IMG/VR virus record: IMGVR_UViG_3300014208_000019
Location: 1 to 39,365 of that record
Reading direction: 5' to 3' (one strand)
Length of the DNA stretch: 39,365 bases
DNA from: a virus
Taxonomy: Duplodnaviria > Caudoviricetes
This document shows, one piece after another, positions 1,374-39,365 of this stretch. The position numbers and the translations under genes were made by a program. How positions within the stretch are numbered: position 1 is the first letter of the stretch; every line of letters starts with the position of its first letter. Below the pieces are notes generated by a model, which searched no databases, was not told where the DNA came from, and saw only the letters and a list, made by a program, of their open reading frames with translations.

Positions 1374-1813
1374 TGACAAAGATAACAGTCAAGCTCAAAG
1401 ATTACGACGTACTGCACGACCTTTTCAAACAAGCGCCAGAAAAAACAGCAAAGGAAATAAATATCGCGGTGCAAAAAGTTATTTTGAAAGTTCAGGGTTC
1501 GGCAATGAAACTCGCACCGATACAGTCAGGAAAATTGAGGCAAAGCGTAACGTCTCAAATGACAGGAATTGGATCTGGAAAAGTTGAGGTCGGAAGTTCT
1601 TATGGAATTTTTGTTCACGACGGGACGAAGCCTCATATAATACAAGTGAAGAAAAAAAGATGTTTGGCAAACGTAAAAACGGGACAAATTTTTGGAAAGA
1701 TAGTCCACCACCCCGGAACGAAAGCAAACCCATTTTTGCAAAACGCGGCGGACACGGAAATGACTTTTATAGATAAAGTGTTTGGAGAGGCGGTGGATAA
1801 CATAATGAAATAA
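1373..1813 (+). CDS. HK97 gp10-like neck protein
   Basis: APIQSGKLRQS, YGIFVHDGT and HPGTKANPFL motifs; start reassigned to ATG 1373, overlapping the upstream TAA. Confidence 0.8.
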   Translation: MTKITVKLKDYDVLHDLFKQAPEKTAKEINIAVQKVILKVQGSAMKLAPIQSGKLRQSVTSQMTGIGSGKVEVGSSYGIFVHDGTKPHIIQVKKKRCLANVKTGQIFGKIVHHPGTKANPFLQNAADTEMTFIDKVFGEAVDNIMK

Positions 1814-1814
1814 A

Positions 1815-2234
1815 ATGACAACTACATTTTTCAAAGACATAGCGGACGCAATAAAGAACAAAGTGAATACCGCGGAAAGCGTGGAAGTTGTTTATGGATA
1901 CGAGAAGTCAACATTTGCAGGTTTCCCCGCGGTCGTAATAGTACCGACATCAAACGATTCGGACTATGGGTCAACCGAGAGCGACAAAATAACTTACGTC
2001 TTCAAGGTCAAAGCGTATTACATAATAAAGGACGAAACGGAAATGGAGGAAGCGGACACCGCAATGTATGAAGTTATGGACGAGTTGAGCAACATATTCC
2101 GAGAACGAGACGTGTTGGGAGACGCTTGTGATTGGGTTGAGCCAGTTCCGGGAGAGTGGGACTTTGAGGAAAGAGGCGAAGCCGTTTACCGAACAGCAAC
2201 CCTCACACTTCGTTGTAAAAAGTATGTTGGATAA
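1815..2234 (+). CDS. Tail terminator/completion protein (putative)
   Basis: Acidic 139 aa with FPAVVI motif, immediately before the tail tube gene. Confidence 0.6.
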   Translation: MTTTFFKDIADAIKNKVNTAESVEVVYGYEKSTFAGFPAVVIVPTSNDSDYGSTESDKITYVFKVKAYYIIKDETEMEEADTAMYEVMDELSNIFRERDVLGDACDWVEPVPGEWDFEERGEAVYRTATLTLRCKKYVG

Positions 2235-2242
2235 TTAAAAAC

Positions 2243-2264
2243 GTGTTATAATAAAAGTATAAAA
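2243..2264 (+). promoter_or_regulatory. Extended -10 promoter motif GTGTTATAATAAAAGTATAAAA
   Basis: Identical to 26176-26197; lies upstream of the tail tube gene. Confidence 0.7.
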
Positions 2265-2285
2265 TTAATCGCTAACGAAAAACAT

Positions 2286-3302
2286 ATGTCAAATTTTTAT
2301 AGAGGAGATTTATTGAACATTGTGGTCGGAGTTGAAAACCCCGCCGCACGAGGGACGAAAGTTGACCCTATCGCCGCGATACCCGGACGCGCACCGTCGG
2401 GAATTAACGTGGACGTTATCAAAACTTTAATGAAAGAAACGCGCGGATCTGGAATTGCTTCACAAGGTTCCGAAATAGTCGGACGCGAGGCAAGCGGCCC
2501 GTTTGAGTTTAACCTCCGAAGCGAAACAATCGGATACATTTTGAAAACGATTGCCGGAGCGTGTAACACCGCAACGATACTCGCAAGCGTCAAAGAGCAT
2601 ACCTTTACTATACCGAAAGCAGAGCCGGAAACACCGACACTCACATTTGGACTTGCCGGAGGCCCGCAAGAATACGCATACCCCGGAGGTATCGGAAAGA
2701 AGCTCGTTATCAAAACGCCGGTAAACGATTTGGTAAACTGCGTGCTTGATATGCTCGCGCGCGACGAGGAAGAACACGCCGATTATGATATGACGGGACT
2801 ATTTTCTTCTACCGACTACATTTTCAGACCGCAAGATATTACTATCAAAATCGCAACAAACATCGCCGGACTTGCGGCCGCACCCGCGCTCGCTGTCAAA
2901 GAATTTTCCTATACTCACGACAACGGAGGGAAAGCTCAAAGGGTACTCGGAAGCGCGCCGGCTAGTAACCACCTCGCAGGGTTGACTTCAATCACAGGCG
3001 ATATGGTTTTGGATTTCGGAGGAAAAACATATCACGATTACTTTGTGGACGGAGATTATAAAGCGTTGCAAATTACACTTCAAAGAACGGATATTGATTT
3101 GGACGTGGCACACAATCACCCTCGCCTCATTATTGAACTTCCGAGAGTTTCTATTGAAAAATACAACCCGGAAAGACCGATTGACGATATTATCAGAGAC
3201 AAGTTTTCTTTTGTCGCACACTTTGACGAAACGGAAGACAGCGCGTTTGAGGCACGCCTCCAAAACACGGTCGCTGATTACGATTACGAACCGGCTTCAT
3301 AA
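2286..3302 (+). CDS. Major tail tube protein
   Basis: 338 aa between neck genes and tape measure; beta-rich, with HTFT, ITGDMVLDF and LIIELPRV patterns. Confidence 0.7.
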   Translation: MSNFYRGDLLNIVVGVENPAARGTKVDPIAAIPGRAPSGINVDVIKTLMKETRGSGIASQGSEIVGREASGPFEFNLRSETIGYILKTIAGACNTATILASVKEHTFTIPKAEPETPTLTFGLAGGPQEYAYPGGIGKKLVIKTPVNDLVNCVLDMLARDEEEHADYDMTGLFSSTDYIFRPQDITIKIATNIAGLAAAPALAVKEFSYTHDNGGKAQRVLGSAPASNHLAGLTSITGDMVLDFGGKTYHDYFVDGDYKALQITLQRTDIDLDVAHNHPRLIIELPRVSIEKYNPERPIDDIIRDKFSFVAHFDETEDSAFEARLQNTVADYDYEPAS

Positions 3303-3373: not shown

Positions 3374-5260
3374 ATGGCAGACAAAAAACTAACATTTTCA
3401 ATAACCGCAGAGAACAACACAAACGCCGCCATAAACGAGGCGACGGCAAACCTTGAAAAAGTAGAAAAGAAAACTGCCGACGTTACGAAAGCGCAAACAG
3501 CGCAAGCTTCCGCCTCCACAAAAAGTGGCGGGGCGTTTTCGTCTTTGAGCGGAGCTGTTGCTTCGGGAATGTTGATTTATAACGCCGCGGTAATGGCGGT
3601 GGAAAAATTCATCGGAGCGATAAAAGGAACGGTGGACGCTTATGTGGAAGCCGAGAAAAAAACAGCGCTTATGGAAAACCGCCTCAAAAATATGGGGGCG
3701 GAATACGGAGCGCTTATCCCGAAAGTAAAAGAACACGCCGACCAAATGATACAGATGGGGTTTGACGACGAGGAAACGGCGGACAGTTTATCACGTTTGA
3801 TACAAATGACAGGCGACTATAACAGCGCCGTTCAAATTCAGAATGTAGCAATGGACTTCGCGAGGAATAAAGGAATTTCCCTTGACCAAGCCACGCAGAC
3901 CCTCATAAAAGCAAACGTCTCGGGCGCGCGTGTTATGCGCGAGTTTGGGTCTACCTTGGAAGACAACGCCACTTTTATGCAGGTGTTGATGGAAATAGAA
4001 AAGAACGCAGGGAACGCGACCGAAACATATGCAAACCAAACCGCGGGACAGTTAGACGTAATGTCCGTGAAGTGGGATAACCTCAAAGAAAAAATCGGTG
4101 GGGTATTCGTAACGCTTGCCGGATATGTGAAGACGGGAATGATTGCAAGTATGGAAGCGTGGGGAATGTCTTTGACCGATACAAAAGTGGTAATTGACCG
4201 AAACCTTGCATCCATAGACGCGAAGTTTAAGACAAGTGCGGTCGCGCAAAAAGAATTTGCGGACGCAGTAAACAGCGCACACGAAGAAGTGACGAACGCT
4301 TTGCAAAAAGAGCGTGATGATCTGGAAAAGAACGCACAGGATTGGACGACCACGCGACAAAAAATGGCGGACGACCTCACAAAACTGCAAAAGGATTTTT
4401 TGGCAAACGAAAAAGACACAGAGGAGGCAAACCACGAAAGACAACTGGAACTTTACAACTCTCACGCCGAAAAGGTAGCGAACTTGAAAGAACAGGTCGC
4501 AACAGAGGAAGACCAAACAAAAAAAGACAAACTCCAAAAACAACTGGACGAGGAATTGGCAATTTTGAGACAATACGACGGATTGAAAACGGAAGCGCAA
4601 GCTCTTGCTTCAAAAAGCGATTTACAACTTCTTGACGAAAGGTTCAAAGCCGAGAAACAAAAAAGGATTGACGCGGCCGCCGAAAAGGTAGCCGATATGC
4701 AGAAAGAATATCTTGCAGAGCAAGAAGCTTACAAGAAAAAAGACGAAGCGATATTGAATGCAACGGCGACAACCCTGCAAAAAATTCAAGACAAGTACAA
4801 AGTGAGTTTTGGAAATATCAAAACGATAGTGGATACCACACACGACCAGATTGCAACTTCTATCGCGGACATCGTTTCGCAGTTTATGCAAGCGGAAGTG
4901 AAAGTGAGTACAGCGGCCGCGAGTATTAAAGCAAAAGCGCAAGAAGCCACCGTCGCAAAAGAGTCGCTTGTTTCTTTTAATTCGCTCGGGATAATGCAGA
5001 TAGGAACGCAGACAAACAAAAGCACAGACCCTCTTTCTTTTCTTCCTCATTTCGCAGAGGGAGGAATTGTGAACGGCCCGACGATTGCACTCATAGGCGA
5101 AGACGGCCCCGAGGAAGTCGTGCCACTGGGAAAAGGAACGAGGTCGGGTCTAACGATTAACCTTACAATCACCGGAAACAATTTTGTTGGACGCGAGGGA
5201 ATAGCCGACCAGATAGGACGCGACGTTATGCGTGTGATAAAAGCAAACGTAAAATTATGA
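3374..5260 (+). CDS. Tail tape measure protein
   Basis: Long helical, Ala/Lys/Glu-rich protein with N-terminal LTFSITAEN and C-terminal FAEGGIVNGPTIALIGEDGPEEVVPL; start at ATG 3374. Confidence 0.9.
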   Translation: MADKKLTFSITAENNTNAAINEATANLEKVEKKTADVTKAQTAQASASTKSGGAFSSLSGAVASGMLIYNAAVMAVEKFIGAIKGTVDAYVEAEKKTALMENRLKNMGAEYGALIPKVKEHADQMIQMGFDDEETADSLSRLIQMTGDYNSAVQIQNVAMDFARNKGISLDQATQTLIKANVSGARVMREFGSTLEDNATFMQVLMEIEKNAGNATETYANQTAGQLDVMSVKWDNLKEKIGGVFVTLAGYVKTGMIASMEAWGMSLTDTKVVIDRNLASIDAKFKTSAVAQKEFADAVNSAHEEVTNALQKERDDLEKNAQDWTTTRQKMADDLTKLQKDFLANEKDTEEANHERQLELYNSHAEKVANLKEQVATEEDQTKKDKLQKQLDEELAILRQYDGLKTEAQALASKSDLQLLDERFKAEKQKRIDAAAEKVADMQKEYLAEQEAYKKKDEAILNATATTLQKIQDKYKVSFGNIKTIVDTTHDQIATSIADIVSQFMQAEVKVSTAAASIKAKAQEATVAKESLVSFNSLGIMQIGTQTNKSTDPLSFLPHFAEGGIVNGPTIALIGEDGPEEVVPLGKGTRSGLTINLTITGNNFVGREGIADQIGRDVMRVIKANVKL

Positions 5261-6744
5261 TAACTATTTCAATCGCGGGGATAGACCGCTCGTCCCTTAT
5301 CACATTTGGAAGCGTACGAAAAACGGACGCAATAAACCAACAGACAGACCTGTTGAGTTTTTCCATAGTGGGACACAACACTCAAACATACAAACCGACA
5401 CCGGGCGACGAGGTTTTAATGTACGACGGAGCGACAAAAGTATTCGGCGGGAGGATTTACGCAGTAACAACAAGCGACGCGGGACACGGAAAAAAATTCC
5501 ACTCGGTACAGGCAAAAGATTATTCTTATGATCTGGGACGGCTTCTTGTTGTGGAAGAATACGACGGAATGACAGTGGAGGACGTTATAACCGCAATTTT
5601 GACGGCATACGCGCCAGATTTTACGCATAGCAACGTCGTATGTACCCTAAACGTAGTCAAGGTCGTTTTTGACAGAATAACGGTAATGCAAGCCATACAA
5701 AAACTCGCGGATATGGCGGGCTTTTCTTGGTACGTTGACTATGACAAAGATATACATTTTTTTGAAAAGAATACCGAACCGGCACCCTTTACGATAGAGG
5801 ACGACAACGGAAACTTGATTGCGGAGACGTTGGAAATTACCGACGACCTTTCACAAATAAGAAACCGAATTTTTATCAAAGGTGGAGAGGTAGAGGGAGA
5901 CGAACGAACGGAACCGATAAACGGAGACGGCACAAAAAAACAATTCAAACTTTCAAATAAGTTTTCACATATTCCAACAGTAATGGTCGGAGGAGTACCA
6001 AAAACTGTGGGTGTGGATTACATAGACGACGAAGCGAGCTTTGATTGTTTCTGGGATTATAACCAGCAATATATTCGTTTCAAAGATACGACAATCCCCG
6101 GAGTCGGAGCGAATAACATTTTGGTTACTGGGTTACCTCTTTATCGTTTGGTTGTTCAAGTATCAGACCCCACGAGTATTACCGCGAACGGAATTTTTGA
6201 ATATACGGAAACGGACGAAACTTTGAAAAGTAGAGAGAGCGCCGTGGCTTTTGCCCGGGCGCAGATAGCGGCCTATAAAGACGGAGTAACCGAGGGACAC
6301 TTTGAAACGTACACACCCGGATTGAGAAGCGGGCAAATTATTGAAATATCAACATCACTCCGAGGAGTAACAGAATACTTTTTAATACAGCGCACCTCTT
6401 TTTCAATGCTCACGCAAACGAGTTTTGTTTGGAGTGTAGAACTCGCGACACTTAAAACGGTCGGGCTTATAGATTTTCTTATGTCGCTTTTGCAAAACGG
6501 CACGAAACTTTTGCAAGATACGGGCGAGGTGGTTTTGGAAAAAACAGAATTTCCCGAAGAAAGTTTGGGAATAACCGAAACCGTAGACGTAAACACGGAA
6601 GACATACCGATTGCCGAGAGCGCCGAAATACAAGAAGCGGTCGTGGTGCAAGCCCTTGATTACGGCGTGCAGTTTGTACTCGGGCCGTGCATACCACACG
6701 GAACGAAAAGAGTTTTTTGTCTTGACGGGAGCCGTATGATTTAA
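5257..6744 (+). CDS. Minor tail/baseplate hub-like protein
   Basis: Follows the tape measure with ATGA overlap; AIQKLADMAGFSWYVD and GLRSGQII patterns. Confidence 0.65.
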   Translation: MITISIAGIDRSSLITFGSVRKTDAINQQTDLLSFSIVGHNTQTYKPTPGDEVLMYDGATKVFGGRIYAVTTSDAGHGKKFHSVQAKDYSYDLGRLLVVEEYDGMTVEDVITAILTAYAPDFTHSNVVCTLNVVKVVFDRITVMQAIQKLADMAGFSWYVDYDKDIHFFEKNTEPAPFTIEDDNGNLIAETLEITDDLSQIRNRIFIKGGEVEGDERTEPINGDGTKKQFKLSNKFSHIPTVMVGGVPKTVGVDYIDDEASFDCFWDYNQQYIRFKDTTIPGVGANNILVTGLPLYRLVVQVSDPTSITANGIFEYTETDETLKSRESAVAFARAQIAAYKDGVTEGHFETYTPGLRSGQIIEISTSLRGVTEYFLIQRTSFSMLTQTSFVWSVELATLKTVGLIDFLMSLLQNGTKLLQDTGEVVLEKTEFPEESLGITETVDVNTEDIPIAESAEIQEAVVVQALDYGVQFVLGPCIPHGTKRVFCLDGSRMI

Positions 6745-7345: not shown

Positions 7346-8476
7346 ATGACAGCACTACCTACATTTACAGCGGATAACGAACTCCCCGCCGCTGATCTGC
7401 AACAAGCTTTTGCTGACGTTGCGGAAGTCGCGCGTGAAATGCTTTATGCGGCTTCAAGCGCGGGAAACGATACGTATGCGATTACGCCATATCCGGCAAT
7501 AAGCGCGTATGCAGTCGGGCAGGTTTTTTATTTCAAGGCGGACGTGGCAAATACAGGTGCCGCGACTTTGAATGTAAACGGAAAGGGAGCTATCGCTATC
7601 AAAAAAAATAAAGATGTTGCTTTGACGAGTAACGATATAAAAGCCGACTCGCTTGTTGCCGTAATTTTTGACGGTACAAATTTTCAAATGATTAACCAAC
7701 TTGCAAACCCTAGTATTGATTTGCAGGTTTTTACAGGTAACGGAACGTGGACGAAACCTGTTGGAGTAAACGCGGGCAGTAGAGTGATTGTGGAACTCTG
7801 GGGAGGAGGCGGAGGTGGAGGTTCTTCAAATGCAAACGCAGGAAGTGGCGGAGGAGGCGGTGGAGCATATCACAGATTTGAAATTCTTGCGTCATTGCTC
7901 GGTGCGACAGAAACTATCACAGTCGGAGCGCTTGGAGCGAAAGGAGCCGCGGACAGCGACGGAAGCGCAGGCGGAGCTTCGTCTTTTGGAACGTGGGCTT
8001 ATGCTTACGGCGGAGGAGGAGGTGGAAAATCTACCGCAGGCGGTGGAGGTTCAGGATACGGTGGAGGTGGTGGTGGTATTTTTAGCGCAGGCGGAAATGG
8101 AAGCTCGGGAGCAGGTGGAGCAGGCGGAGCGCCCCTTGGAGGAGCTTCACCCGACGGAGTGAGTATTTATGGTGGTGCAGGAAGCTGTGTGAGCGGAGGA
8201 GGTGTTTCTGTTTTTGGCGGTTCAGGCGGCGCAAGACAAAATGCAAGTATTCCGACGGTTATGTTTGGCGGAGCAGGTGGGGGAGGAGTTTCCGCACCGG
8301 GGGTCGCTGGAAACGGAGGAATTTCATTGCACGGGGGAAACGGAGGCAACGGAGCAAATGGAAACGGCACAGACGGAAGCGCGCCAGGCGGAGGCGGGGG
8401 AGGAGGCGGTGGCGTGGGGGCAGGTGTTGGAGGAGACGGCGCCCGTGGAGAAGTCAGAGTAACCACTATTTTATAA
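7346..8476 (+). CDS. Glycine-rich tail fibre/receptor-binding-like protein
   Basis: N-terminal FKADVANTGAATLNVNG fibre module; C-terminal glycine-rich domain from QVFTGNGTWTKP to GEVRVTT. Confidence 0.75.
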   Translation: MTALPTFTADNELPAADLQQAFADVAEVAREMLYAASSAGNDTYAITPYPAISAYAVGQVFYFKADVANTGAATLNVNGKGAIAIKKNKDVALTSNDIKADSLVAVIFDGTNFQMINQLANPSIDLQVFTGNGTWTKPVGVNAGSRVIVELWGGGGGGGSSNANAGSGGGGGGAYHRFEILASLLGATETITVGALGAKGAADSDGSAGGASSFGTWAYAYGGGGGGKSTAGGGGSGYGGGGGGIFSAGGNGSSGAGGAGGAPLGGASPDGVSIYGGAGSCVSGGGVSVFGGSGGARQNASIPTVMFGGAGGGGVSAPGVAGNGGISLHGGNGGNGANGNGTDGSAPGGGGGGGGGVGAGVGGDGARGEVRVTTIL

Positions 8477-10057: not shown

Positions 10058-10261
10058 ATGGAAAAACTTTTCACAAGCGCGTCAAAAATTGTTTTCCTCG
10101 TAATGGCATTTACGATCTGCTTTGCATTTCTTTTTGAAGTCATTTCGGGAAGAATTACAATGGAGGCAAAAGATTTTTTCGCCCTCGCGGGAATGGCTTT
10201 TGTATTTTATTTTTCAAACAAAGGAGACACGAGCGGAGGCGCACTCTATGCGGGAAAATAA
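10058..10261 (+). CDS. Holin (2 TM, putative)
   Basis: 67 aa with two hydrophobic segments, directly after the lysin. Confidence 0.65.
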   Translation: MEKLFTSASKIVFLVMAFTICFAFLFEVISGRITMEAKDFFALAGMAFVFYFSNKGDTSGGALYAGK

Positions 10262-10266
10262 AATAG

Positions 10267-10275
10267 TGGTATAAT
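10267..10275 (+). promoter_or_regulatory. Extended -10 promoter TGGTATAAT
   Basis: Consensus match just after the holin stop; no ORF lies before the following terminator. Confidence 0.5.
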
Positions 10276-10321
10276 GTAATTACAGTTTTGTGTTGGGACT
10301 GAGGAGCCGAAAGGCACCGGG

Positions 10322-10348
10322 AAAGAGCGCTCTCTGCGCTCTTTTTTG
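10322..10348 (+). terminator. Intrinsic terminator ending the late/lysis region
   Basis: AAAGAGCGC-TCTCT-GCGCTCTTT stem-loop running into a T tract. Confidence 0.85.
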
Positions 10349-10349
10349 T

Positions 10350-10507
10350 TGGGGAAAACCGAGGGGATAACAGGGGGAAACTTGGGGATAACTAAAATCA
10401 AGTTGTACCTTTTGGCGCATCTCAGTTGTACCTTTTGGCGCATCACTCTATATACAGAGAGTACTAACAGATATTATATATAGAAAAACCTTTTTGACTT
10501 ATCCACT
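10350..10507. promoter_or_regulatory. Putative replication origin: DnaA-box-like cluster, 21-bp direct repeats and AT-rich tract
   Basis: GGGGA(T/A)AAC-like units at 10351, 10363, 10374 and 10384; AGTTGTACCTTTTGGCGCATC twice; AT-rich 10449-10500; TTATCCACT at 10499. Confidence 0.6.
10401..10444 (+). repeat. Perfect 21-bp direct repeat x2 (iteron-like, period 23)
   Basis: AGTTGTACCTTTTGGCGCATC at 10401-10421 and 10424-10444. Confidence 0.9.
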
Positions 10508-10523
10508 CCGACGACGAAACGAC

Positions 10524-10551
10524 TGGACTTTTATTTTTTATCGTTTATACT
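10524..10551 (+). promoter_or_regulatory. Sigma70-like early promoter (TGGACT-16-TATACT)
   Basis: Precedes a GGGCGG..CCGCCC 5' hairpin and the first early ORF. Confidence 0.5.
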
Positions 10552-10606
10552 ATCTTATAAACGAGGGCGGAAGATTAACACTAACCCCGCCCGCATAGCC
10601 AACACT

Positions 10607-10786: not shown

Positions 10787-10787
10787 A

Positions 10788-11966: not shown

Positions 11967-12160
11967 CCGAAGAAACAAAAAGAATAAAAGCGGAAGCCGA
12001 ACAAGCCAAAGCTGATCTGCACAGAGGAAACATTTCGTATGCAGAGGCGCAAACAAAGGTCGCGGAGTACGTCCGCCTCGTAAACGAACGGGGACAAGTA
12101 CTGGCAAAAGAACACGGCGTGCCGTTCCGAGCCGTGAGCATTATTGGATTTTTACGGTAA
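11963..12160 (+). CDS. Hypothetical protein
   Basis: ATGA overlap; helical. Confidence 0.6.
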   Translation: MTEETKRIKAEAEQAKADLHRGNISYAEAQTKVAEYVRLVNERGQVLAKEHGVPFRAVSIIGFLR

Positions 12161-12162
12161 AT

Positions 12163-27466: not shown

Positions 27467-27795
27467 TGAAAATAAAGATTTCAATTTTAGGAGCGATAAT
27501 TTACACGGTTGCAATAGCGACTGGCGCCGTTTATTTTCGGGGAAAGAGTATCACATCACCAACGGCTATGACGATTATCCCGTGGAACGACGGAGAACTA
27601 GCCACAACGACCGCACAGGTTGGAAGAGGACTTGCAGACCTTATCTCACAATGTGCAAAGCATAGAGGCGTTACGAGCTTGGAGGGGCAACAAGACCCAT
27701 ACCTGACGTGCGACCTCGGAGACGGCAAAGAATTATATAAATATAACGACTGGGAGTGGCAACTTCTTGTCCCTAAAAATTTGCAACGCATATGA
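27466..27795 (+). CDS. Membrane-anchored/secreted hypothetical protein
   Basis: N-terminal hydrophobic segment. Confidence 0.6.
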   Translation: MKIKISILGAIIYTVAIATGAVYFRGKSITSPTAMTIIPWNDGELATTTAQVGRGLADLISQCAKHRGVTSLEGQQDPYLTCDLGDGKELYKYNDWEWQLLVPKNLQRI

Positions 27796-29237
27796 CCGAT
27801 ATAATTTGGCACAACGAAAAAAGGAAAGTGGCGGACTTATTGCCCGCCGACTATAACCCGCGCAAGCTCTCGCCAAAGAGCGGCGCGGATTTGCGTGATA
27901 GTATTACCAAATTCGGAGAGGCGGAGCCGGTGTGCATTAACACAGGGGCAAGAAAAGACACCCTTATCGGCGGACACCAACGGGTGAAGATTTATGCTGA
28001 TCTGGAACGCGAAGAAATTGACGTGCGAGTACCGAGCCGAGAGCTTACCCTTGAAGAAGAAAAAGAACTCAATCCCCGTTTGAACAGGAACGTGGGAGAG
28101 TGGGACTGGGAAGCCCTAAACGCCTTTGACAAAGATATGCTTCTTATGGCGGGTTTTGATATAAAGGACATCAAAAAGCTTATGGGGCAGAATAATATCA
28201 GGGAAGACGCGCGAGTAAAATTGTCCGAAAGATTTTTGATACCTCCATTTTCAGTATTGGACAGCCGACAGGGATATTGGCAAGACAGAAAGAGAGCGTG
28301 GAGTGATTTGATACAAGGCGAGCTTTCAGAGACACGCGAGGGCAAAGGACTTGAAACCGACGCGCAGTATTATGTGAACAAAAGCAAAACGGAAAAGTTT
28401 CTCGGGCGTACCCTTACGCGGGAGGAATTTGAAGACCATTACACCACGGAAATGTTGAACGAGGGCATTTCTATTTTTGACCCGGTACTTACCGAAATTA
28501 TGTATTTGTGGTTTTGCCAGAAAGGAGGAAAAATCCTTGACCCATTTATGGGTGGGCAAACGCGACCGTTCGTTGCTTTGGAACTTGGCTATAAATACAC
28601 GGGCGTGGATATACGACCCGAACAGGTAACGGCGAACGAAACAGCGTGCAAAGAATTTGAGGGAGGGAAACTTTTTGCGGGCGACAGCAAAAACATTGAC
28701 ACGATAGTGCCGGAAAAAGATTTTGACCTCGTTTTCACTTGCCCGCCTTATTATGATCTGGAAGTTTACAGCAAAGACGATATGAGCGCCCTCGGAACGT
28801 ACGAGGAATTTCTTGTGCAATACAAAGAGGTTTTCAAAAAGTGTGTAGAAAAACTGAAAGATAACAGATTTTTGGTAATAGTAATCGGAGAGATACGAAA
28901 CAAGAAGACAGGGGAATATCGGAACTTTGTCGGGGATAACATTCGGATATTTAATGAGCTTGGTTTGAAATACTACAACGAGATAATTTTGACCACATCA
29001 GTGGGGAGCTTACCTATGAGAGCGCCGAGACAATTTAATCAAAGCCGAAAAATAGGGAAGACGCACCAGAACATTTTGACCTTTTGGAAAGGGGGAGCCG
29101 AGAACCTTTTCAAACAAGAACACGCATTGCTTGCCACTCACCAGAATATCCTCACTTTCTTCAAAGGGGATTTGGACGCAATACAAGGGAACTTCGGGGA
29201 AGTCAGTCGGCCCGAAGATATAACAAAATTGTTATGA
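27792..29237 (+). CDS. ParB/Srx-like domain fused to an amino (N4C/N6A) DNA methyltransferase
   Basis: YNPRK..SI.KFG..IGGHQR at the N-terminus; ILDPFMGG motif I; FTCPPYY motif IV. Confidence 0.85.
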   Translation: MTDIIWHNEKRKVADLLPADYNPRKLSPKSGADLRDSITKFGEAEPVCINTGARKDTLIGGHQRVKIYADLEREEIDVRVPSRELTLEEEKELNPRLNRNVGEWDWEALNAFDKDMLLMAGFDIKDIKKLMGQNNIREDARVKLSERFLIPPFSVLDSRQGYWQDRKRAWSDLIQGELSETREGKGLETDAQYYVNKSKTEKFLGRTLTREEFEDHYTTEMLNEGISIFDPVLTEIMYLWFCQKGGKILDPFMGGQTRPFVALELGYKYTGVDIRPEQVTANETACKEFEGGKLFAGDSKNIDTIVPEKDFDLVFTCPPYYDLEVYSKDDMSALGTYEEFLVQYKEVFKKCVEKLKDNRFLVIVIGEIRNKKTGEYRNFVGDNIRIFNELGLKYYNEIILTTSVGSLPMRAPRQFNQSRKIGKTHQNILTFWKGGAENLFKQEHALLATHQNILTFFKGDLDAIQGNFGEVSRPEDITKLL

Positions 29238-30148: not shown

Positions 30149-31460
30149 AGCCATAGATGCAGACCAACTTTTGGACTGCGTGAAGAAAAGCACGAGCGCC
30201 GTTGTTATTTCACACGAACAGGTTGCGACAGAGCGTTTGTTTGCGGCCGTTAGATATTACGTTGAGAATATGGCCGCCAAGCCATTAGTCAGCATAGACA
30301 GCAAGCGCGAAATGAAGTTCCCGAAACGCGGGTCAACATACTTTATCGGAACGGCAGGGCAAAGAGCATTCGGACGCGGGGACACCGTTGACCGCGCGCA
30401 CTTATCCGAGGCCGCTTTTTATTTGGATCTGGAAAAGATTTTGGGAGGTATAGCAGAGGCGGCGGAGTACGGACAGATAGACATTGAGACCACACCGAAC
30501 GGACGCGAACAGTTTTATGATATGTGGCAGAAAGCAAAGACCGGGCGCTCCCCTTACACCGCGATATTCATTCCGTGGTTCATAGATACCGAATACAGCG
30601 TGGACAGTTTAACCAGAGAGGAAAGAGACGGCTTGAGCGCGGGCGTGCGCGAGATGTTTTCAATACCAGACGCAGAGTTTTTAGCAACAATAGGCGACGA
30701 AGAAAAAAGATTGGTTGCAAGGGTAGCGCAAGAATACGGAATAATAATGACCGCGGGGCAATTAAAGTGGAGACGATACAAGATATGGGATAAAGGAATG
30801 ATATTTTATCAGGAATATCCCGAGGACGACGTGAGTTGTTTCCTACAAAGCGGACGTTCAGTTTTCACTCAGATAACGACCGACACGACAAAGCGCATTC
30901 CTTTGGATAACTTTGAGAAGTGGGCCGACGAAGAAACCCGCGCGAAGTTTAAGAAAAAGATTTTGTTCGGAGGAGTAGACTGTGCCGAGGGAGTACGAGG
31001 AGGCGACCGTCATTGTTTCAGCGTAATAGACGCGAACGTCGGAGAGGAGAAAGCGCAAGTCATTTTTGAATATACGAGTGATGAGCCGATAGATGTTTTT
31101 TGGGATAGGATAGAGCCGATTATGAAATCGTTCAGAATATGGACGGGCATTGAAAAGAACGGCGTCGGAGTAGCACACGTCAAAGAGGCCCGAGGAAGAA
31201 AGATACCTTTTATTTTTGAATGGTGGACGGGAGACAATCGCCCTCTTATGTTTTCAGATTTGGAAACAGCATACAGAAAGGAAACTTTGATTGAGGGATA
31301 CACCGAGGCAGAGAACGAGGCGCGTGATATGATTTATGTACACGGGCAACACGGAGACCGCCCTGACACGCAAAAGAACAAACACGATGACCGAGTTATG
31401 AGCCGAGCGATAGCATTGCAAATGAGAAAGAAACCTGTACCGGGCATTACCCTATTGTAA
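29979..31460 (+). CDS. terL: Terminase large subunit
   Basis: LKARQKGISK, RGDT, HLSEAAF, ETTPNG, QEYP, GVDCAEG, EKNGVG and HDDRVM. Confidence 0.93.
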   Translation: MNTNLPDNRVLIERLLKIRNKRGSQVPFRFNVAQNYYWERRTRRNLILKARQKGISKAIDADQLLDCVKKSTSAVVISHEQVATERLFAAVRYYVENMAAKPLVSIDSKREMKFPKRGSTYFIGTAGQRAFGRGDTVDRAHLSEAAFYLDLEKILGGIAEAAEYGQIDIETTPNGREQFYDMWQKAKTGRSPYTAIFIPWFIDTEYSVDSLTREERDGLSAGVREMFSIPDAEFLATIGDEEKRLVARVAQEYGIIMTAGQLKWRRYKIWDKGMIFYQEYPEDDVSCFLQSGRSVFTQITTDTTKRIPLDNFEKWADEETRAKFKKKILFGGVDCAEGVRGGDRHCFSVIDANVGEEKAQVIFEYTSDEPIDVFWDRIEPIMKSFRIWTGIEKNGVGVAHVKEARGRKIPFIFEWWTGDNRPLMFSDLETAYRKETLIEGYTEAENEARDMIYVHGQHGDRPDTQKNKHDDRVMSRAIALQMRKKPVPGITLL

Positions 31461-31499: not shown

Positions 31500-33689
31500 A
31501 TGACTCTTATTTCAAAAGTAACATCTATTTTTAAGAGGAAAGACGCAATGCCAACGCCTGCGACTGGGGGCTTTGAACTTTTACAAAGGTTGACCGCAGG
31601 GGCGTGGAGTAATACAAAAATGTTGGAGACGTACGAAAAAAGTTTGTACGTCTTTCGTGCTGTGGATAAGATAGCCGAAAAAGTAGCGGGGGCGGATTTG
31701 GATTTGTTTCAGATACTTAACGCAAGCGGAGACACAAAAGAAATTCTCGTCAGCCCTTTGCTTGACCTTATGTATCGCCCGAACCCTTTTCAGACACGCG
31801 AGGAGTTTATGAAGATTACCACTATCAACCTGAAACTTTGCGGAGACGCTTTTTGGTACAAAGTAAAGAACGACCGCGGACAGATAGTTGAATTGTGGAA
31901 TTTGCGCCCGGATATGATTGAGATTTTGAAAGACCCTGTTGAATTTATCAAAGGGTATCGTTTCACAAAGACCGACGGCGTCATTGTACCTTTTGCACCC
32001 GAGGAAATAGTCCACTTCCGAGCGCCGACACCGCTTGATGACTATATGGGCGTATCCCCTATTCGTAGCGCACAGACCCGCATTGATACCGAGGATTTCG
32101 CCTCACAATATCAACGCGACTTTTTCTTGAATAACGCGCGCCCGGACGGAATACTGAAAACGGACACCGTGCTTGACCAAGAAGCGAAAGACGACATCAG
32201 AGACAACTTCCACAAAGCGCACAAAGGTATTGGAAAAAACAGCAAGCTCGCAATTTTTGACAGCGGGTTACAATACGAACAGATAAGCGTCAATCAAAAA
32301 GAAATGGACTACATAGAAAGTATGAAGTTCACACGCGACGACATACTCGTTGCGTTCGGCGTACCTAAAAGCGTGTTGGGTATTTCAGAAGACGTAAACA
32401 GAGCGAACGCGGAGACAGGAATGTATGTTTTTCTTTCCGAGGTTATTATGCCGACGATGCGCGACCTTTTGGGAAAGATAAACGAAATGCTCGTATCGCC
32501 TGATTTCGGAGATAACTTTTATTTTGATTGCGAGGATTTAGTGCCACAAAACAGAGACCAAGTTTTGAAAGATTACGACAGCGGATTGAGTAAAGGGTGG
32601 CTCACGATAAACGACGTGCGCGCAAGGGAAAACCTCCCGCCGTTAGACGGGTGCGATGTTCCTTTCCTGCCTATCGGACTTATGCCTATCGGGGAAAACA
32701 TACAGCAACCGGGAGAGCCGACACCCGCCGCAAAATACTTCGCTGATCTGAAAGTCAAAGAAGCGAGAAAGAGGGCGAAGCTTATGAGGGGACATATGTT
32801 CTTGAGACAAAAATTTCTTATCGCCGAAAACATAAAATCAAAACTGGAAGCGAAAATGAAAAAGAGCGTTTTACAAGAAACAAAGACGGAACCGAAAAGA
32901 AAAAAAAAGAATAAAAAAAAAGATAAAGTTCCGACAGCATTTTTGAGAGACGAAGAAACGAAAGTGAAATATGCGGATATGGTAAACAAAGCGATAGACC
33001 ACAGAGCGGGACAGTTCAAAAAAGCATTGGGTCAGTTAGCAACAAGACAAAAGAATGCGCTTATTGTAAAATTAAAGAATAGCGGAGACCTTTCAAAAAA
33101 TAAAGCAATCGGAACGGAAGCGAAAAAGACGGTTGCGAAATTCTTTACAGAGCAAGAAGAGGTATGGGCGGAGTTTGCATTTCCTTTTATGAGCGAATAC
33201 GCGAGGCAGGCAGGGACGGAGGCAATGGCAATGGTAAACCCCGACAAAGCATTTTCAATGTCGGAGCGAGTACAGGCAGTTTTGAAACGAAGGTCAACAG
33301 AGTTCGGGCTTGGAGTAAACGGAACGACCAGAGACAAGGTATCAACAGCCATATCAGACGGATTGGACGCAGGCGATGGCATAGATAAGCTATCTGCACG
33401 CATTACGGAGGTATACGCAGAGTTTCCGAGAAGCCGAGCGGAACTGATAGCGAGGACGGAAAGCACAGCGGCGAACAACGAGGGATTTTTGGAGGCGTAC
33501 AAACAGAGCGGAGTTGCGACACACAAAGAATGGGTAAACGCCGGAGACGACCGAGTGAGAGACGAACACCAAAACGGTATCGGGGTCGGTGGAGAGATAG
33601 TCCCCGTCAATCGTACTTTTACTAACGGGTTAATGTTTCCACAAGAACCAAATTGCCGGTGCGTAATAGCCCCCGCATTTGAACAATAA
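31500..33689 (+). CDS. HK97-family portal protein fused to a MuF/SPP1-gp7-like head morphogenesis domain
   Basis: RPNPFQ, GVSPI, FFLNNARPDG, AFGVP and TINDVRAREN; C-terminal RAELIARTES..KEW..DDRVRDEH..PNCRC. Confidence 0.9.
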   Translation: MTLISKVTSIFKRKDAMPTPATGGFELLQRLTAGAWSNTKMLETYEKSLYVFRAVDKIAEKVAGADLDLFQILNASGDTKEILVSPLLDLMYRPNPFQTREEFMKITTINLKLCGDAFWYKVKNDRGQIVELWNLRPDMIEILKDPVEFIKGYRFTKTDGVIVPFAPEEIVHFRAPTPLDDYMGVSPIRSAQTRIDTEDFASQYQRDFFLNNARPDGILKTDTVLDQEAKDDIRDNFHKAHKGIGKNSKLAIFDSGLQYEQISVNQKEMDYIESMKFTRDDILVAFGVPKSVLGISEDVNRANAETGMYVFLSEVIMPTMRDLLGKINEMLVSPDFGDNFYFDCEDLVPQNRDQVLKDYDSGLSKGWLTINDVRARENLPPLDGCDVPFLPIGLMPIGENIQQPGEPTPAAKYFADLKVKEARKRAKLMRGHMFLRQKFLIAENIKSKLEAKMKKSVLQETKTEPKRKKKNKKKDKVPTAFLRDEETKVKYADMVNKAIDHRAGQFKKALGQLATRQKNALIVKLKNSGDLSKNKAIGTEAKKTVAKFFTEQEEVWAEFAFPFMSEYARQAGTEAMAMVNPDKAFSMSERVQAVLKRRSTEFGLGVNGTTRDKVSTAISDGLDAGDGIDKLSARITEVYAEFPRSRAELIARTESTAANNEGFLEAYKQSGVATHKEWVNAGDDRVRDEHQNGIGVGGEIVPVNRTFTNGLMFPQEPNCRCVIAPAFEQ

Positions 33690-33696: not shown

Positions 33697-34425
33697 ATGA
33701 ACAAAAAACTTTTGAATAGAGAAAAAAAGAGTGTTGACTTTACGTTTCATATCAAGAGCGTGGACGAAACACAGCATATCATTGAGGGTGTGTTTTCTAC
33801 CCCGGACGTAGACCGACACGGCGAAGTGGTCGTGCAAAACGGGTGGGACTTGGAAAACTACAAGCGAAACCCCGTCGTTTTATGGGCGCACCAAAACCAA
33901 GAATTGCCGGTGGCACAAATGGTTGAAATTGGGCCCGACGCAATGGGAATGCTTGCGGGTAAAATGAAATTTGCCGTTGAGGAATACGAACACGCAGCAA
34001 CCGTCTACAAACTTATGGTGGGCGGATACTTACGAGCATTTTCAGTCGGATTTTCAAACAACAGATATGAGGTTGCACAGAATGAAGAAGTCGTCTACCT
34101 TACCGAGAACGAACTCTTTGAGGTTTCAATCGTGAACGTACCCGCCAACGCATTGGCATTGGCAAAGAGCAAGGGGATTGACGTTTCTTCATTTGAGCAA
34201 GATAATAAAGAGGAGGAGAAGACGAAAGACGAAGAAGACGAGAAAGCGATCTGTGCACAGATTGCGAAAAACATTCAAAACGATTTAAGGGGCGATAAGT
34301 CCAACGGAAAAAAGAAAAAGGTCGAAACCCCACAAGGACTGGGCGTCAAAAAGTACTCTATCAGGAAACTGAACGGAGCCATCCGCAAACTCTTAAAAGA
34401 GAAACGCGGAATTAAAAAAGTTTAA
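33697..34425 (+). CDS. HK97-family prohead protease
   Basis: DRHGE, NPVVLWAH, AFSVGF and LFEVSIVNVPAN. Confidence 0.92.
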   Translation: MNKKLLNREKKSVDFTFHIKSVDETQHIIEGVFSTPDVDRHGEVVVQNGWDLENYKRNPVVLWAHQNQELPVAQMVEIGPDAMGMLAGKMKFAVEEYEHAATVYKLMVGGYLRAFSVGFSNNRYEVAQNEEVVYLTENELFEVSIVNVPANALALAKSKGIDVSSFEQDNKEEEKTKDEEDEKAICAQIAKNIQNDLRGDKSNGKKKKVETPQGLGVKKYSIRKLNGAIRKLLKEKRGIKKV

Positions 34426-36471: not shown

Positions 36472-36504
36472 AAAAAGTTCCCGACGAAAAATCGGGAACT
36501 TTTT
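36472..36504 (+). terminator. Perfect 13-bp stem, terminator-like hairpin abutting the next ATG
   Basis: AAAAAGTTCCCGA-CGAAAAA-TCGGGAACTTTTT followed by ATG. Confidence 0.75.
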
Positions 36505-36927
36505 ATGGATAACACAAAATATATTTTTAACAGGGAGGGAGTAGAGGAAGACGTGCCGTTGGAAGTTTACAAATGGGTCGCAACGTATAAAGACGGAAGC
36601 GAACTCAAACAGTTTGACAAAGAGACGGGAATTTTCCACCAAGTCGGAGAGATACAACAGGATAAACTCGCACGCTTTACTATGATCTGCACGGAGGAGG
36701 AAAAAATAAAGCACACCATATCCGTGCCGGAGGGGGCGAAGATTATTCACAAATACAACCGATACGTTTTCAACGCGAAACGCCCGGACGAAATAAAACT
36801 CACGATTTATATTTTCGGATATAAAATCGGAGGACATCATCATTTCAACTTTATTCTTCCCGACGGGAATATCGTGCAAAACATTACCGGCGAGATACGG
36901 GCCGAAGACGGCAAGTGGGTATATTAA
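36505..36927 (+). CDS. Hypothetical protein
   Basis: 140-aa ORF with W.ATYKDGSELKQFD. Confidence 0.7.
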   Translation: MDNTKYIFNREGVEEDVPLEVYKWVATYKDGSELKQFDKETGIFHQVGEIQQDKLARFTMICTEEEKIKHTISVPEGAKIIHKYNRYVFNAKRPDEIKLTIYIFGYKIGGHHHFNFILPDGNIVQNITGEIRAEDGKWVY

Positions 36928-36940
36928 AAAATAAAAACAT

Positions 36941-38254
36941 ATGGCAGACCAAAAAATAACAGCGCTTACGGCACACACCGCCCTCATAGACACAGACGTT
37001 GTGCCTGTGGTGGACATAACAGCCGGAGCGACAAAGAAAACGACGTGGGCGAATATCAAAAGCGTTCTCAAAACGTATTTTGACGGTATCTATTCCGCCA
37101 CGGGACATAACCACTCGGGCGTGTATGCACCTGTGCTTGGGGCAGACGACAATTATGTTACCGACGCGGAAAAAACTGTCATAGGAAACACGAGCGGAAC
37201 GAACAGCGGAAACGAAACGACAACGACACTCGGCGCAACAATAAACGGAGCGACAGCAAAAACGTCGGCGGTAGACGCGGATATGCTTTTGCTTATGGAT
37301 AGCGCGGACTCAAACCACGGAAAAAAATTGTCGTGGGCTTACGTCAAAAGTGTTTTGAAAACATATTTTGATACCATTTACGCCGTGGGAACGATACCAG
37401 TCAAAGCGAGTGGTGCCGAAATAAACACAGGAACGGACGACGCAAAATTTGCAACCGCGGCCGCAATTCTTGCAAGTAAAATTACATCAATAGACGTTCA
37501 AACTTTCACAGGAAACGGAACGTGGACACGCCCTACTACTTACAGAGCGTCAAGCCGTGTCGTTATTGAACTTTGGGGAGGAGGCGGAGGCGGAGGCGGA
37601 TCTGCCGCAAATGCAGGTTCAGGCGGAGGGGGCGGTGGAGCATATAACCGCGTGGAATGTTTAGCGTCAGCTCTTGGCTCAACGGAAAGCGTAACCGTCG
37701 GAGCGGCCGCCAACGGAGGAGCGTCAAGCGGAGCCGTTGGGACAGCAGGGAACACGTCTTCTTTTGGAACGAAAGCTTATGCGTATGGTGGGGGTGGAGG
37801 AGGAAACACAGATGGTGGTTCAGGCGGTTCAGGATACGGCGGTGGCGGTGGCGGGATAATGGGTGTTGGAGGAAACGGAAGTGGAGGAGCGGGAGGAGCT
37901 GGAGGAGCGCCGCTTGGCGGAGCGCAAGATAGCGCGAGTACTTTTGGAGGTGGTGGAAGCAATTTGAATGGTGGAACAGCCTTTACCGTTTATGGAGGTA
38001 CAGGTGGTTCAAGACAAAACGCTGCGATACCTGCGAATACTTACGGAGGCGGAGGGGGCGGTGGAGTGAGTGCGCCTGGCACGGCGGGAACAGGAGGAAC
38101 GTCTGTCTTTGGCGGAGCAGGAGGAAACGGAGCAAATGGAACTGGAAATAACGGAACAGCGCCTGGTGGAGGCGGAGGCGGTGGCGGAGGTGTCGGGGGC
38201 GGAGCAGGAGGAAACGGAGCGAGAGGAGAGGTGCGTGTTACAACTTACATCTAA
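36941..38254 (+). CDS. Glycine-rich fibre protein, paralogue of 7346..8476
   Basis: MADQKITAL N-terminus; KSVLKTYFD repeated twice; same glycine-rich C-terminal domain. Confidence 0.75.
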   Translation: MADQKITALTAHTALIDTDVVPVVDITAGATKKTTWANIKSVLKTYFDGIYSATGHNHSGVYAPVLGADDNYVTDAEKTVIGNTSGTNSGNETTTTLGATINGATAKTSAVDADMLLLMDSADSNHGKKLSWAYVKSVLKTYFDTIYAVGTIPVKASGAEINTGTDDAKFATAAAILASKITSIDVQTFTGNGTWTRPTTYRASSRVVIELWGGGGGGGGSAANAGSGGGGGGAYNRVECLASALGSTESVTVGAAANGGASSGAVGTAGNTSSFGTKAYAYGGGGGGNTDGGSGGSGYGGGGGGIMGVGGNGSGGAGGAGGAPLGGAQDSASTFGGGGSNLNGGTAFTVYGGTGGSRQNAAIPANTYGGGGGGGVSAPGTAGTGGTSVFGGAGGNGANGTGNNGTAPGGGGGGGGGVGGGAGGNGARGEVRVTTYI

Positions 38255-38260
38255 AAAATA

Positions 38261-39365
38261 ATGACGACAACATTTTTCAAGTTACTCCTTGAGACCGGGG
38301 ACAGAATACTTTTGGAAACGGGCGACAATGTGTTGCTTGAAAATTTGTCGTACACGGTAAATGATGTCGCGGCCGCGTATGCAATACAGGCGAAAGTTCC
38401 CGGAACTAAAACGGCGCAGTATACAATTTTGACTGTAAACGCACAAACGCAATCCGGAGCGTACGCTATCACGACCACTATCCCGACAACACAGGGCGCG
38501 GACTACTTTATTCAGGCGAAAAAACCTACTACTCAGGGGGCAGATTATAAGGTTCAGGCGAAAAAGTTGATAGAACCGAGCGCCGAATACTACATATCAA
38601 CCGAACATATCGCCGATATTGGGGCGGATTATTCGGTTATAACCGAGAATGACGACACCCTTGCAAGCGCGTACACAATAACAACGGACACCGAACAGAG
38701 CAAAACAGCCGATTATTTCATCGGAAAAGAACGCGAAAACACGCTTGAAAGTACATACAAGGTAACAACTACCACCAAACAAGACAAAACAAGCGCGTAT
38801 GCGATTGTGGCGCCCCAGAGCATAGGGCAAACGGCACAGTATACCGTCATTACAGATACGGAAATGCCTATCGCTTCCGATTACTTCATAAAGACGGTCG
38901 GAGCGGCCACCAAAGGCGCAGGATACGCGATACAAGCGAAATACCCGCAGACGTTTGGTGCCGATTACGAAATAGAAACCGAGAACGCAATTTTGCAAGG
39001 CGCGACCTATACCGTCAACTCAAACAAAGCAGTTGAGAAGACCGGGGACTATTACATCACAACGAACGGCGGGATTTCTTTCGGAGCGGAGTATATCATT
39101 TCGGTAAAAACTGATCTGCAAAACATCGCGGAGTATTTTATTCTTTCCGAGAACGCCGAGGAAAAAGGAGCGGACTATTGCGTGAAGACCAACACCGCGC
39201 AAAGTATGGGGGCGCAGTATTGTTTGACCACAGAGACAGAGGCAACGAAAGGCGCGCAATACTTTATTGCGAAAAAGATTGAGCAAGAAAAAACGGCAAC
39301 GTATTTCATTATCGGAAAAAATGGAATTGAGAAAGGTGCCGGATATACAGTGATTACGGATACAG
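38261..39365 (+). CDS. 5' part of the 501-aa 14-residue tandem-repeat protein (wraps to 422; missed by ORF track)
   Basis: Own translation MTTTFFKLLLETGDRILLETGDNVLLE..., open to the window end. Confidence 0.9.
   Translation, partial: MTTTFFKLLLETGDRILLETGDNVLLENLSYTVNDVAAAYAIQAKVPGTKTAQYTILTVNAQTQSGAYAITTTIPTTQGADYFIQAKKPTTQGADYKVQAKKLIEPSAEYYISTEHIADIGADYSVITENDDTLASAYTITTDTEQSKTADYFIGKERENTLESTYKVTTTTKQDKTSAYAIVAPQSIGQTAQYTVITDTEMPIASDYFIKTVGAATKGAGYAIQAKYPQTFGADYEIETENAILQGATYTVNSNKAVEKTGDYYITTNGGISFGAEYIISVKTDLQNIAEYFILSENAEEKGADYCVKTNTAQSMGAQYCLTTETEATKGAQYFIAKKIEQEKTATYFIIGKNGIEKGAGYTVITDT
39345..39365. repeat. 21-bp terminal overlap, identical to 1-21
   Basis: Exact match. Confidence 0.95.

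Follow-up and report, generated by a model that had tools for sequence, protein, structure and literature searches.

The phage genome and its GATCTG sites

The window, by which we mean the whole stretch of DNA analysed here (39,365 nt; IMG/VR virus record IMGVR_UViG_3300014208_000019), is the genome of a groundwater phage with an HK97-like head and a siphovirus-type tail, all genes of which lie on the + strand, and our subject is the hexamer GATCTG, which recurs round this genome as an evenly spaced, one-way lattice. Searches with PHROGs, Pfam and NCBIfam profiles identified an O-like initiator, SSB, an SNF2-like helicase, RecT, a RusA-like resolvase, two DNA methylases and a glycosyltransferase cluster, while primase, polymerase and integrase found no match among the phage proteins in the same searches, which leave room for remote primase folds among uncharacterised open reading frames (ORFs). 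With its two ends overlapping by 21 nt, the record forms a complete circle, and the closing GATC gap therefore measures 1803 bp instead of 1824. The same sequence turned up in an independent groundwater run of 2022, which contains 95% of the sampled window words and long identical pieces with zero differing letters, so the window is no assembly artefact.

By exact count GATC occurs 26 times, in all 26 cases as GATCTG on the + (coding) strand, with CAGATC and AGATC at 0 across the whole window. The sequence-only reading had described every GATC as a co-oriented GATCTG, with neither CAGATC nor AGATCT present; the exact counts agree, and all 26 of its coordinates were exact. The sites are as follows.

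1572..1577, + strand, GATCTG, x-Ser frame
2446..2451, + strand, GATCTG, x-Ser frame, tail tube gene
4319..4324, + strand, GATCTG, Asp-Leu
5530..5535, + strand, GATCTG, Asp-Leu
7394..7399, + strand, GATCTG, Asp-Leu; the longest gap (2720 bp) begins here
10114..10119, + strand, GATCTG, Ile-Cys
12014..12019, + strand, GATCTG, Asp-Leu
13869..13874, + strand, GATCTG, Ile-Cys, inside the SSB gene
15334..15339, + strand, GATCTG, Asp-Leu
16655..16660, + strand, GATCTG, Ile-Cys, inside the helicase gene
17829..17834, + strand, GATCTG, Asp-Leu
19492..19497, + strand, GATCTG, Ile-Trp
20060..20065, + strand, GATCTG, Asp-Leu; the shortest gap (568 bp) ends here
21695..21700, + strand, GATCTG, Asp-Leu
23145..23150, + strand, GATCTG, Ile-Trp
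24041..24046, + strand, GATCTG, Asp-Leu
25122..25127, + strand, GATCTG, x-Ser frame
25966..25971, + strand, GATCTG, Asp-Leu
27999..28004, + strand, GATCTG, Asp-Leu
28755..28760, + strand, GATCTG, Asp-Leu
30426..30431, + strand, GATCTG, Asp-Leu, inside the terminase gene
32745..32750, + strand, GATCTG, Asp-Leu, inside the portal gene
34248..34253, + strand, GATCTG, Ile-Cys
36684..36689, + strand, GATCTG, Ile-Cys
37599..37604, + strand, GATCTG, x-Ser frame
39113..39118, + strand, GATCTG, Asp-Leu, in an ORF crossing the circular junction (38261 to 422)

Neighbouring sites lie 568-2720 bp apart, about 1.5 kb as a rule, and the coefficient of variation (CV) of the gaps round the whole circle, about 0.36, was reached by 0 of 200,000 random placements. 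For random sites the probability of a minimum gap of at least 568 bp is 5e-6, where the reading of the letters alone had put it at about 1e-5. Of the 1,481 hexamers present ten times or more in the window, GATCTG is spaced the most evenly; gaps below a quarter of the mean number 0 against 5.7 expected, and gaps above twice the mean 0 against 3.5 expected. The gap series is of renewal type, and a phase-locked lattice was rejected for the 26 sites by the spacing test. The 26-site observation is thus confirmed as real and selected.

The sites fall in all three frames, as had been claimed (15 Asp-Leu, 7 Ile-Cys/Trp and 4 x-Ser), at relative positions of 0.04-0.76 within genes and with no link to gene starts or stops. 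Genes with GATCTG mostly hold one site, and all genes lie on the + strand, so the polarity is also that of the sense strand. Both facts would suit a signal at the level of transcription, in which the word would act on the non-template strand or in the mRNA as a pause, antitermination reload or cleavage site. However, the scatter of within-gene positions, the failure of one-site-per-gene models to give the observed evenness (P 0.0002-0.006) and the palindromic DNA restriction core, which points to DNA, make such a signal highly improbable. The junction-crossing ORF at 38261-422, which linear ORF calling misses, encodes about 500 aa of short repeats ending Y-x-I.

Selection on the word and purge of restriction-type words

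Synonymous-codon shuffles over the gene set gave 4.8 GATCTG and 96.5 GATC, where 26 and 26 are observed; GATCTG is therefore five-fold enriched while the other ~90 GATC have been lost. A separate set of 300 shuffles, in which the last ORF stood in the wrong frame, gave 5.0 +/- 2.2 GATCTG (maximum 13) and 4.6 CAGATC. The earlier claim of a purged GATC and an enriched hexamer stands, but its uniform expectations of 154 and 10 were too high. Among the synonymous opportunities for GATCTG 26 of 121 are used, and for the reverse orientation 0 of 81; no frame-matched subset of synonymous places was as even as the observed set (0 of 200,000), and of the 95 places left unused, 63 are no more than 560 bp from an occupied site.

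The flanks of the hexamer are graded, with TGATCTG at 18 against 1.07 expected, GGATCTG at 5 against 1.5, CGATCTG at 3 against 1.2 and AGATCTG at 0 against 1.1. The base after GATCTG is C or G in 21 of 26 sites, the free -1 position is T in 14 of the 15 Asp-Leu sites, and CTGATCTG occurs 9 times against 0.05 expected in the window. The preferred word is thus TGATCTG(C/G), and such graded flanks fit a protein reader. At site 17829 a diverged contig carries 6 differences within 20 bp, none of them inside the site (among the 40 of 296 differences listed).

The word is retained against a heavy purge. Observed against shuffled counts in the window are 5 vs 127.5 for TCGA, 0 vs 91.4 for CATG, 0+1 vs 51 for GAATC/GATTC, 0 vs 39 for GGACC/GGTCC, 0 vs 29 for CTAAG/CTTAG, 3 vs 74 for GAAGG/CCTTC and 0 vs about 20 for AATATT and TTTAAA, with GGATG near zero. 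In all, at least a dozen restriction-type words stand near zero in the 39-kb window, and no examined host stretch is alike; that 26 GATC are retained against this purge is the striking point. The sequence-only reading had held that restriction avoidance alone explains neither the retention nor the spacing, and 26 sites against about 5 expected bear this out.

GATC in related phages

Whole-record spacing tests covered 20 whole or near-whole relatives (G handles below) and the window, the other relatives being partial loci (L handles), and the unbiased evenness scan took in 1,200-2,500 words per record; a second scan seeded with L068 gave mostly the same records. Polarity turned out to be commonplace. 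One-orientation words in the 20 relatives include GTCAG (43/0) in G599, AGCAG (58/2) in G600, AGCCA (54/0) in G603, GATTTA (36/0) in G606 and GCTGC (16/0) in G589 and G588, and they are randomly spaced, with a CV of about 0.9-1.1 against about 0.36 in the window. Since relatives commonly carry such words, and at random spacing, polarity alone is ordinary in this phage group, and the earlier view of polarity as a special mark was not upheld. As side observations, the one-orientation purges GTCAG/CTGAC in G599, AGCAG/CTGCT and ATCAG/CTGAT in G600, AGCCA/TGGCT in G603 and GATTTA/TAAATC in G606 involve words that may serve uncultured hosts for Type III or ISP recognition.

Evenness, by contrast with the randomly spaced polar words, recurs for plain GATC. 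GATC ranks first for evenness in the window, in G590 and in G606, and second in G609; across the 21 records its z score lies below -3 in 5 of the 20 records with enough sites, as against none for the other 15 palindromic 4-mers except CCGG, which has 1. G590 holds 38 GATC (CV 0.57, largest gap 2335), G606 43 (0.55, 2124), G609 59 (0.65, 2306) and G599 123 (0.73, 1147), and codon-shuffled thinned nulls reached these CVs in 0, 0 and 1 of 2,000 and in 1 of 1,680, respectively; the GATC flanks in all four are mixed and unpolarised. Among partial loci, L163 (21 kb) has 54 GATC with a largest gap of 844 bp (z -6.6), L173 (12 kb) has 15 with gaps of 457-1582 bp (z -4.5), and L141 and L024 reach z -3.6 and -3.1. 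In G606, G609, L141, L148 and L158 CATG and TCGA are down to 0-3 while GATC is kept. Since plain GATC is under-dispersed in several relatives, the lattice is a GATC lattice common to part of the group, of which the window is the most extreme form.

Could avoidance account for all this? A two-site, Type IIE-like GATC enzyme might clear close pairs while an orientation-sensitive enzyme cleared one direction. Enzymes of Type IIE require several sites and form DNA loops (PMC4081073); the relatives' GATC counts lie at or below shuffle values with few short gaps, and one-orientation purges are common. But avoidance cannot account for 26 GATCTG where 4.8 are expected, or for 18 TGATCTG where 1 is, and the neutral bias in relatives is the opposite one, the one-sided relatives carrying CAGATC on the coding strand. 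Because one word stands in five-fold excess, avoidance alone is insufficient; for the window this excess contradicts it, and for the phenomenon as a whole we regard it as improbable.

Three further words in relatives deserve mention. In L068 (717-12137) and the overlapping L067/G589, which carry a terminase relative (58%), GCNGC is purged except for coding-strand GCTGC, which stands at 16 vs 0 over 24 kb, 12 of the copies being CGCTGC, with CGCTGCG at 10 vs 0.1 expected. There CGCTGC is dense in structural genes and sparse upstream, a restriction core in one asymmetric form that looks Chi-like; as a second lattice it was rejected, being uneven over the joined 24 kb (CV 0.88). In G599 GGCGCC has 15 copies (CV 0.38, z -4.1) and is the most even word of the record, and L139 holds a clustered repeat, GGTCTATG, in 14 copies on one strand.

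Phage genes and the probable origin

The following features may bear on the reading of the word.

10262..10606, no strand, non-coding gap, probable replication origin
13849..14283, + strand, SSB, a clue to the host
16251..17702, + strand, SNF2-like helicase (Pfam/PHROG), candidate reader
17727..18038, + strand, small PD-(D/E)XK-like protein adjoining the helicase, candidate partner (predicted-structure look-alikes with TM-scores of 0.65-0.67, a lead only)
18013..19050, + strand, RecT-like annealase (Pfam RecT, E 1e-24)
19052..19660, + strand, RecE-like exonuclease (predicted model pLDDT 93, Foldseek match to RecE with E 8.7e-7)
20545..20886, + strand, HNH-like protein, possible nickase (weak Foldseek matches to HNH nucleases, E 0.14-1)
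21455..22528, + strand, C5 cytosine methyltransferase
27792..29237, + strand, ParB-fused N4/N6 methyltransferase

The SNF2-like helicase has 99 homologues at 45-59%, and a representative-protein search with it brought no further close family. No GATC gap over 3.0 kb was seen in 16 of 17 helicase-carrying records. In the survey of gaps against helicase (50 sequences, including 29 hand-picked partial loci and several near-duplicates) the low-GATC sequences, below 1.5/kb, were two-peaked, either at 0.5-1.2/kb with gaps of at most 3.0 kb or at 0-0.2/kb. Gaps of at most 3.0 kb were found in 8 of the 9 helicase-bearing low-GATC sequences, and likewise in G590 and G606, where no helicase was detected; 6 of the 8 low-GATC sequences without a detected helicase stood at 0-0.2 GATC/kb (G605, L005, L115, L118, L122 and L131). 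Close homologues of the protein at 17727 occur in G590 and G599, two records whose GATC spacing is even. Sequence searches of the phage proteins against solved structures gave no match under E 0.1, and no known RecBCD inhibitor was identified in the phage, only a weak Gp157 match (E 0.0017).

The HNH-like ORF at 20545, which has 14 homologues in relatives, and the PD-(D/E)XK-like protein at 17727 raise the idea of a phage nickase that introduces programmed single-strand nicks into virion DNA, as in phages tf, Rembedalsseter, phiKMV and T5, a role that the sequence-only reading had listed among its candidates. According to PMC3517423 and PMC11780129, known nick motifs are over-represented, confined to one strand and placed within genes, and low-depth contig ends fell within 10 bp of a site in 7 of 112 cases against 1.9 expected (post hoc, in runs X3-X5, 4 of 48 vs 0.9, P 0.012). 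In the pre-set half (runs X3-X6), however, the count was 3 of 64 vs 1.0 (P 0.08), short of the threshold of 5, among the longest pieces listed; the offsets scatter from -9 to +10, and spanning contigs are not depleted (7 vs 7.8). Another point against nicking is that the GATCTG word resembles the Tn5 target preference. With known nick motifs unevenly spread in the same two sources, palindromic GATC lattices in relatives that misfit a one-strand nickase, and weak evidence for the HNH fold, we consider nicking quite unlikely.

The gap at 10262-10606, by its features a probable origin, contains DnaA-box-like 9-mers at 10363-10371, 10384-10392 and 10499-10507 and a 21-nt direct repeat at 10401-10421/10424-10444. 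G exceeds C all round the + strand, and neither the GC skew nor the motif polarity switches at this gap. If forks ran with transcription the + strand would be the lagging template, and a primase of unusually long specificity might start an Okazaki fragment at each site. The spacing of 0.6-2.7 kb, the single orientation, and the unswitched skew agree with this, and the word ends in CTG, the trinucleotide of E. coli DnaG. Near-matches of the form xATCTG/GxTCTG are also short on the + strand only (3 vs 17.8 expected, as against 63 vs 65.6 on the - strand), but TCTC and GTCT are depleted on + as strongly as TCTG, so this deficit is unspecific. The profile searches matched no primase or polymerase in the phage, a host primase of such specificity would be expected to mark its own chromosome as well but no lattice was seen in host DNA (below), and relatives with zero GATC exist; priming is therefore unlikely.

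Several observations concern the genome at large. The probable origin lies far from the O-like initiator gene at 23053, and a sigma-70 scan of 10.0-12.6 kb gave nothing informative on the motif. A glycosyltransferase, an S-adenosylmethionine (SAM)-methyltransferase-like protein, a hexapeptide acetyltransferase and a uridine diphosphate (UDP)-glucose dehydrogenase stand in a row at 23957-27466, before the packaging genes. Thirteen small ORFs at 10607-12351 and 14291-16136, one with an LPD29 domain, have no homologue in about 155 related loci; they are likely host-takeover genes and possible site readers.

Host and host genomes

The phage host is likely a member of Patescibacteria, as judged from protein matches. 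Taxon-named matches in the SSB search numbered 4 among the best 120, all Patescibacteria, SSB matched in 297 of 301 Patescibacteria genomes at up to about 55% (one of the genomes in this tally is flagged unpublished), and a terminase relative was found in a Moraniibacteriota bin, the class of which we took as the likely host class. The host genomes are incomplete and are a sample, and the true host may lie outside it.

No GATCTG lattice was seen in 100 sampled Patescibacteria genomes. GATC is abundant in host DNA and not under-dispersed there (0 of 116 stretches with z < -3). An apparent same-strand run of GATCTG, 13 of 13 in four host genomes, proved an artefact of listing, as fuller listings show mixed strands. 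Across 401 genomes of the likely host class TGATCTGS (S, C or G) outnumbers AGATCTGS (15,143 vs 11,644), no genome is an outlier with a TGATCTGS lattice, and the highest host density, read by eye, is about 0.2/kb vs 0.38/kb in the phage. For a KOPS-like guide, the polarity switch is absent in the phage and no skew was seen in the sampled hosts, no search for dif having been made. Of 81 Patescibacteria, 78 carry a RecB/AddA-type nuclease domain (PF12705), for the most part within ORFs of some 950-1,170 aa.

These genomes bear also on a modification self-mark, in which GATC would be methylated and a surveillance enzyme would attack long unmarked stretches; the TG and the polarity would come from an asymmetric one-strand methylase, a Type III-like partner would tolerate only head-to-tail sites, and the mark would shield the DNA from GATC cutters. 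GATC is a classic methylation target, and in the Dam/MutH system every position needs a GATC mark no more than a few kb away. Dam-family methylases occur in 9 of 61 genomes of the likely host class. The one-orientation purges in G599, G600, G603 and G606 are typical of Type III avoidance. T7 has 36 head-to-tail EcoP15I sites (PMC12707154), and for phosphorothioate systems a rule of mark density has been put forward (PMC8053081). Against this, MutH over the cut-off was found in 0 of 61 and DndC in 0 of 101 likely-host-class genomes (incomplete genomes, with Ssp-type systems outside the DndC test), three separate agents are needed, with all marks on the same strand one of the two daughters would carry no mark at all, and graded flanks are a poor fit to a strict methylase. 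The sequence-only reading had thought of a mark written by a phage methylase; the C5 methylase has homologues at 44-54% in phage loci where GATC is absent or nearly so (L115, L118, L122, L131 and G605), which argues against a C5 enzyme that needs the sites. On balance a self-mark is rather unlikely, though the strongest of the rivals considered here.

Comparison with known systems

Phages with many Chi sites come closest. PMC12315714 gives 23 Chi in phage LLS, 1 per 1.86 kb and 20 on the top strand, and 32 to 0 in MD8, and bioRxiv 10.1101/2021.07.08.451572 gives 50 Chi on both strands in P1. LLS, MD8 and P1 are alike to the window in having 20-32 copies of a short word within genes, about one per 1.9 kb and mostly or wholly on the head-tail strand; the window likewise shows over-representation in one orientation (26/0 vs about 5/5). 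They differ in that Chi sites cluster towards genome ends, whereas those of the window are evenly spaced round the circle, and in that Chi phages are mostly without recombination genes of their own, whereas the window has RecET and SSB. The window word is moreover a restriction core, and no host skew was found. We therefore do not file the lattice as Chi; by analogy it works like Chi at best.

The nick motifs of tf and Rembedalsseter (PMC3517423, PMC11780129) are likewise enriched, on a single strand, inside coding sequence and of unknown function, but they are 9-mers in 8-14 copies, concentrated in one genome half and conserved across 61 phages, whereas the window has a 6-8-mer spread evenly (CV 0.36 round the circle) in a single lineage, the relatives of which have palindromic GATC lattices. 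In T7 all copies of the asymmetric EcoP15I site face one way (PMC12707154), and in the window 0 of 81 reverse places are used. That pattern, however, implies neither enrichment nor even spacing; its neutral form (CV about 0.9-1.1) is seen in relatives but not in the window. The GATC marks of Dam/MutH repair, and the mark density of phosphorothioate systems (PMC8053081, PMC10470545), share the few-kb mark rule, but their marks are palindromic and unpolarised, and neither MutH nor DndC turned up in the likely host class. In the main texts of open-access papers we found no report of GATCTG/CAGATC in such a role, or of regularly spaced same-strand motifs under restriction avoidance. Polar words are known in phages (Chi, nick motifs), while the even spacing of a restriction core as a polar guide word appears to be new and stands a fair chance of representing a system of a new kind.

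A proposed directional loading or stop lattice

Of the roles first proposed from the letters, a Chi-like or loading signal is the best remaining, while host-wide KOPS or priming roles have no counterpart in the 100 sampled genomes. The reading that we favour, tentatively, is that the lattice serves as directional loading or stop sites for a DNA-tracking helicase or helicase-nuclease, on a logic like that of Chi, thinned by GATC restriction. Two forces would be needed, a cost per site and a benefit that decays over 2-3 kb. GATC-cutting restriction would remove idle sites, that is, those in other contexts, in the reverse orientation or closer than about 0.6 kb to a neighbour, while a tracking enzyme would be loaded, reset or stopped at the sites, as at Chi, such that one site per 2-3 kb is kept and a long gap costs more than a GATC site. 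DpnII-family nuclease genes, found in 6 of 101 genomes of the likely host class (2 of them full length), accord with such a cost per site. The reader would see an extended asymmetric word in this lineage and the palindrome in relatives, and the process would run one way round the genome, starting either with replication from the probable origin near 10.4 kb or at DNA ends made by packaging. A directional tracking reader would explain the polarity without a third agent, and the palindromic word in relatives would fit the same type of reader. Our first guess for it is the phage SNF2-like helicase, with or without its PD-(D/E)XK neighbour, and our second a host protein of ~1,000 residues with the RecB/AddA-type nuclease domain.

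Several results weigh against this reading. The host skew that had been suggested as a check was not found in the sampled genomes, with 343 GATCTG on the G-rich vs 336 on the C-rich strand (100 stretches, 96 genomes), GATCTG lies on mixed strands in 4 x 100 kb of host DNA, and the two best 8-mer outlier genomes (ratio about 3) were rejected as unpolarised. That the phage encodes SSB, RecT and a RecE-like exonuclease of its own speaks against classic Chi; phages with a recombination module and an inhibitor are mostly without Chi, and Chi-rich phages cluster their sites near one end (PMC12315714). The link to the helicase is loose: GATC is evenly spaced in G590, G599 and G606 with no helicase detected there, and the association comes from loci chosen by these genes, several of the helicase loci being near-duplicates and the helicase-negative ones mostly partial. 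G610 has the helicase, yet its 45 GATC are uneven (CV 1.2, a 5.7-kb gap), and in GATC-rich relatives GATC is randomly spaced. The GATC counts of relatives lie at or below neutral (codon-shuffle) values, and thus pure repulsion of close pairs also fits the relatives. Finally, the GATCTG pattern was found in none of 85 terminase/capsid, 23 C5-methylase and 47 helicase loci (the window's record excluded, duplicates included) nor in 39 whole records; no relative has the GATCTG form, so the word change rests on one lineage.

A bolder extension, which we hold doubtful, is that Patescibacteria phages carry a 'ruler', in which a self-encoded SNF2-like translocase must meet a GATC-core site every 2-3 kb in order to replicate or protect the phage DNA, the word having evolved from the palindrome to TGATCTG(C/G) in this lineage under pressure from restriction. 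If true, this would be sequence-gated DNA tracking unlike Chi, KOPS, nick motifs and methyl-directed repair. The lattice names a testable word together with candidate proteins, and the even spacing of an otherwise purged restriction target would be a direct read-out of the ~2-3 kb length scale of a DNA machine. The recurrent under-dispersion of GATC in several phages of this uncultured host phylum would then offer a sequence-only handle on the replication or defence biology of Patescibacteria.

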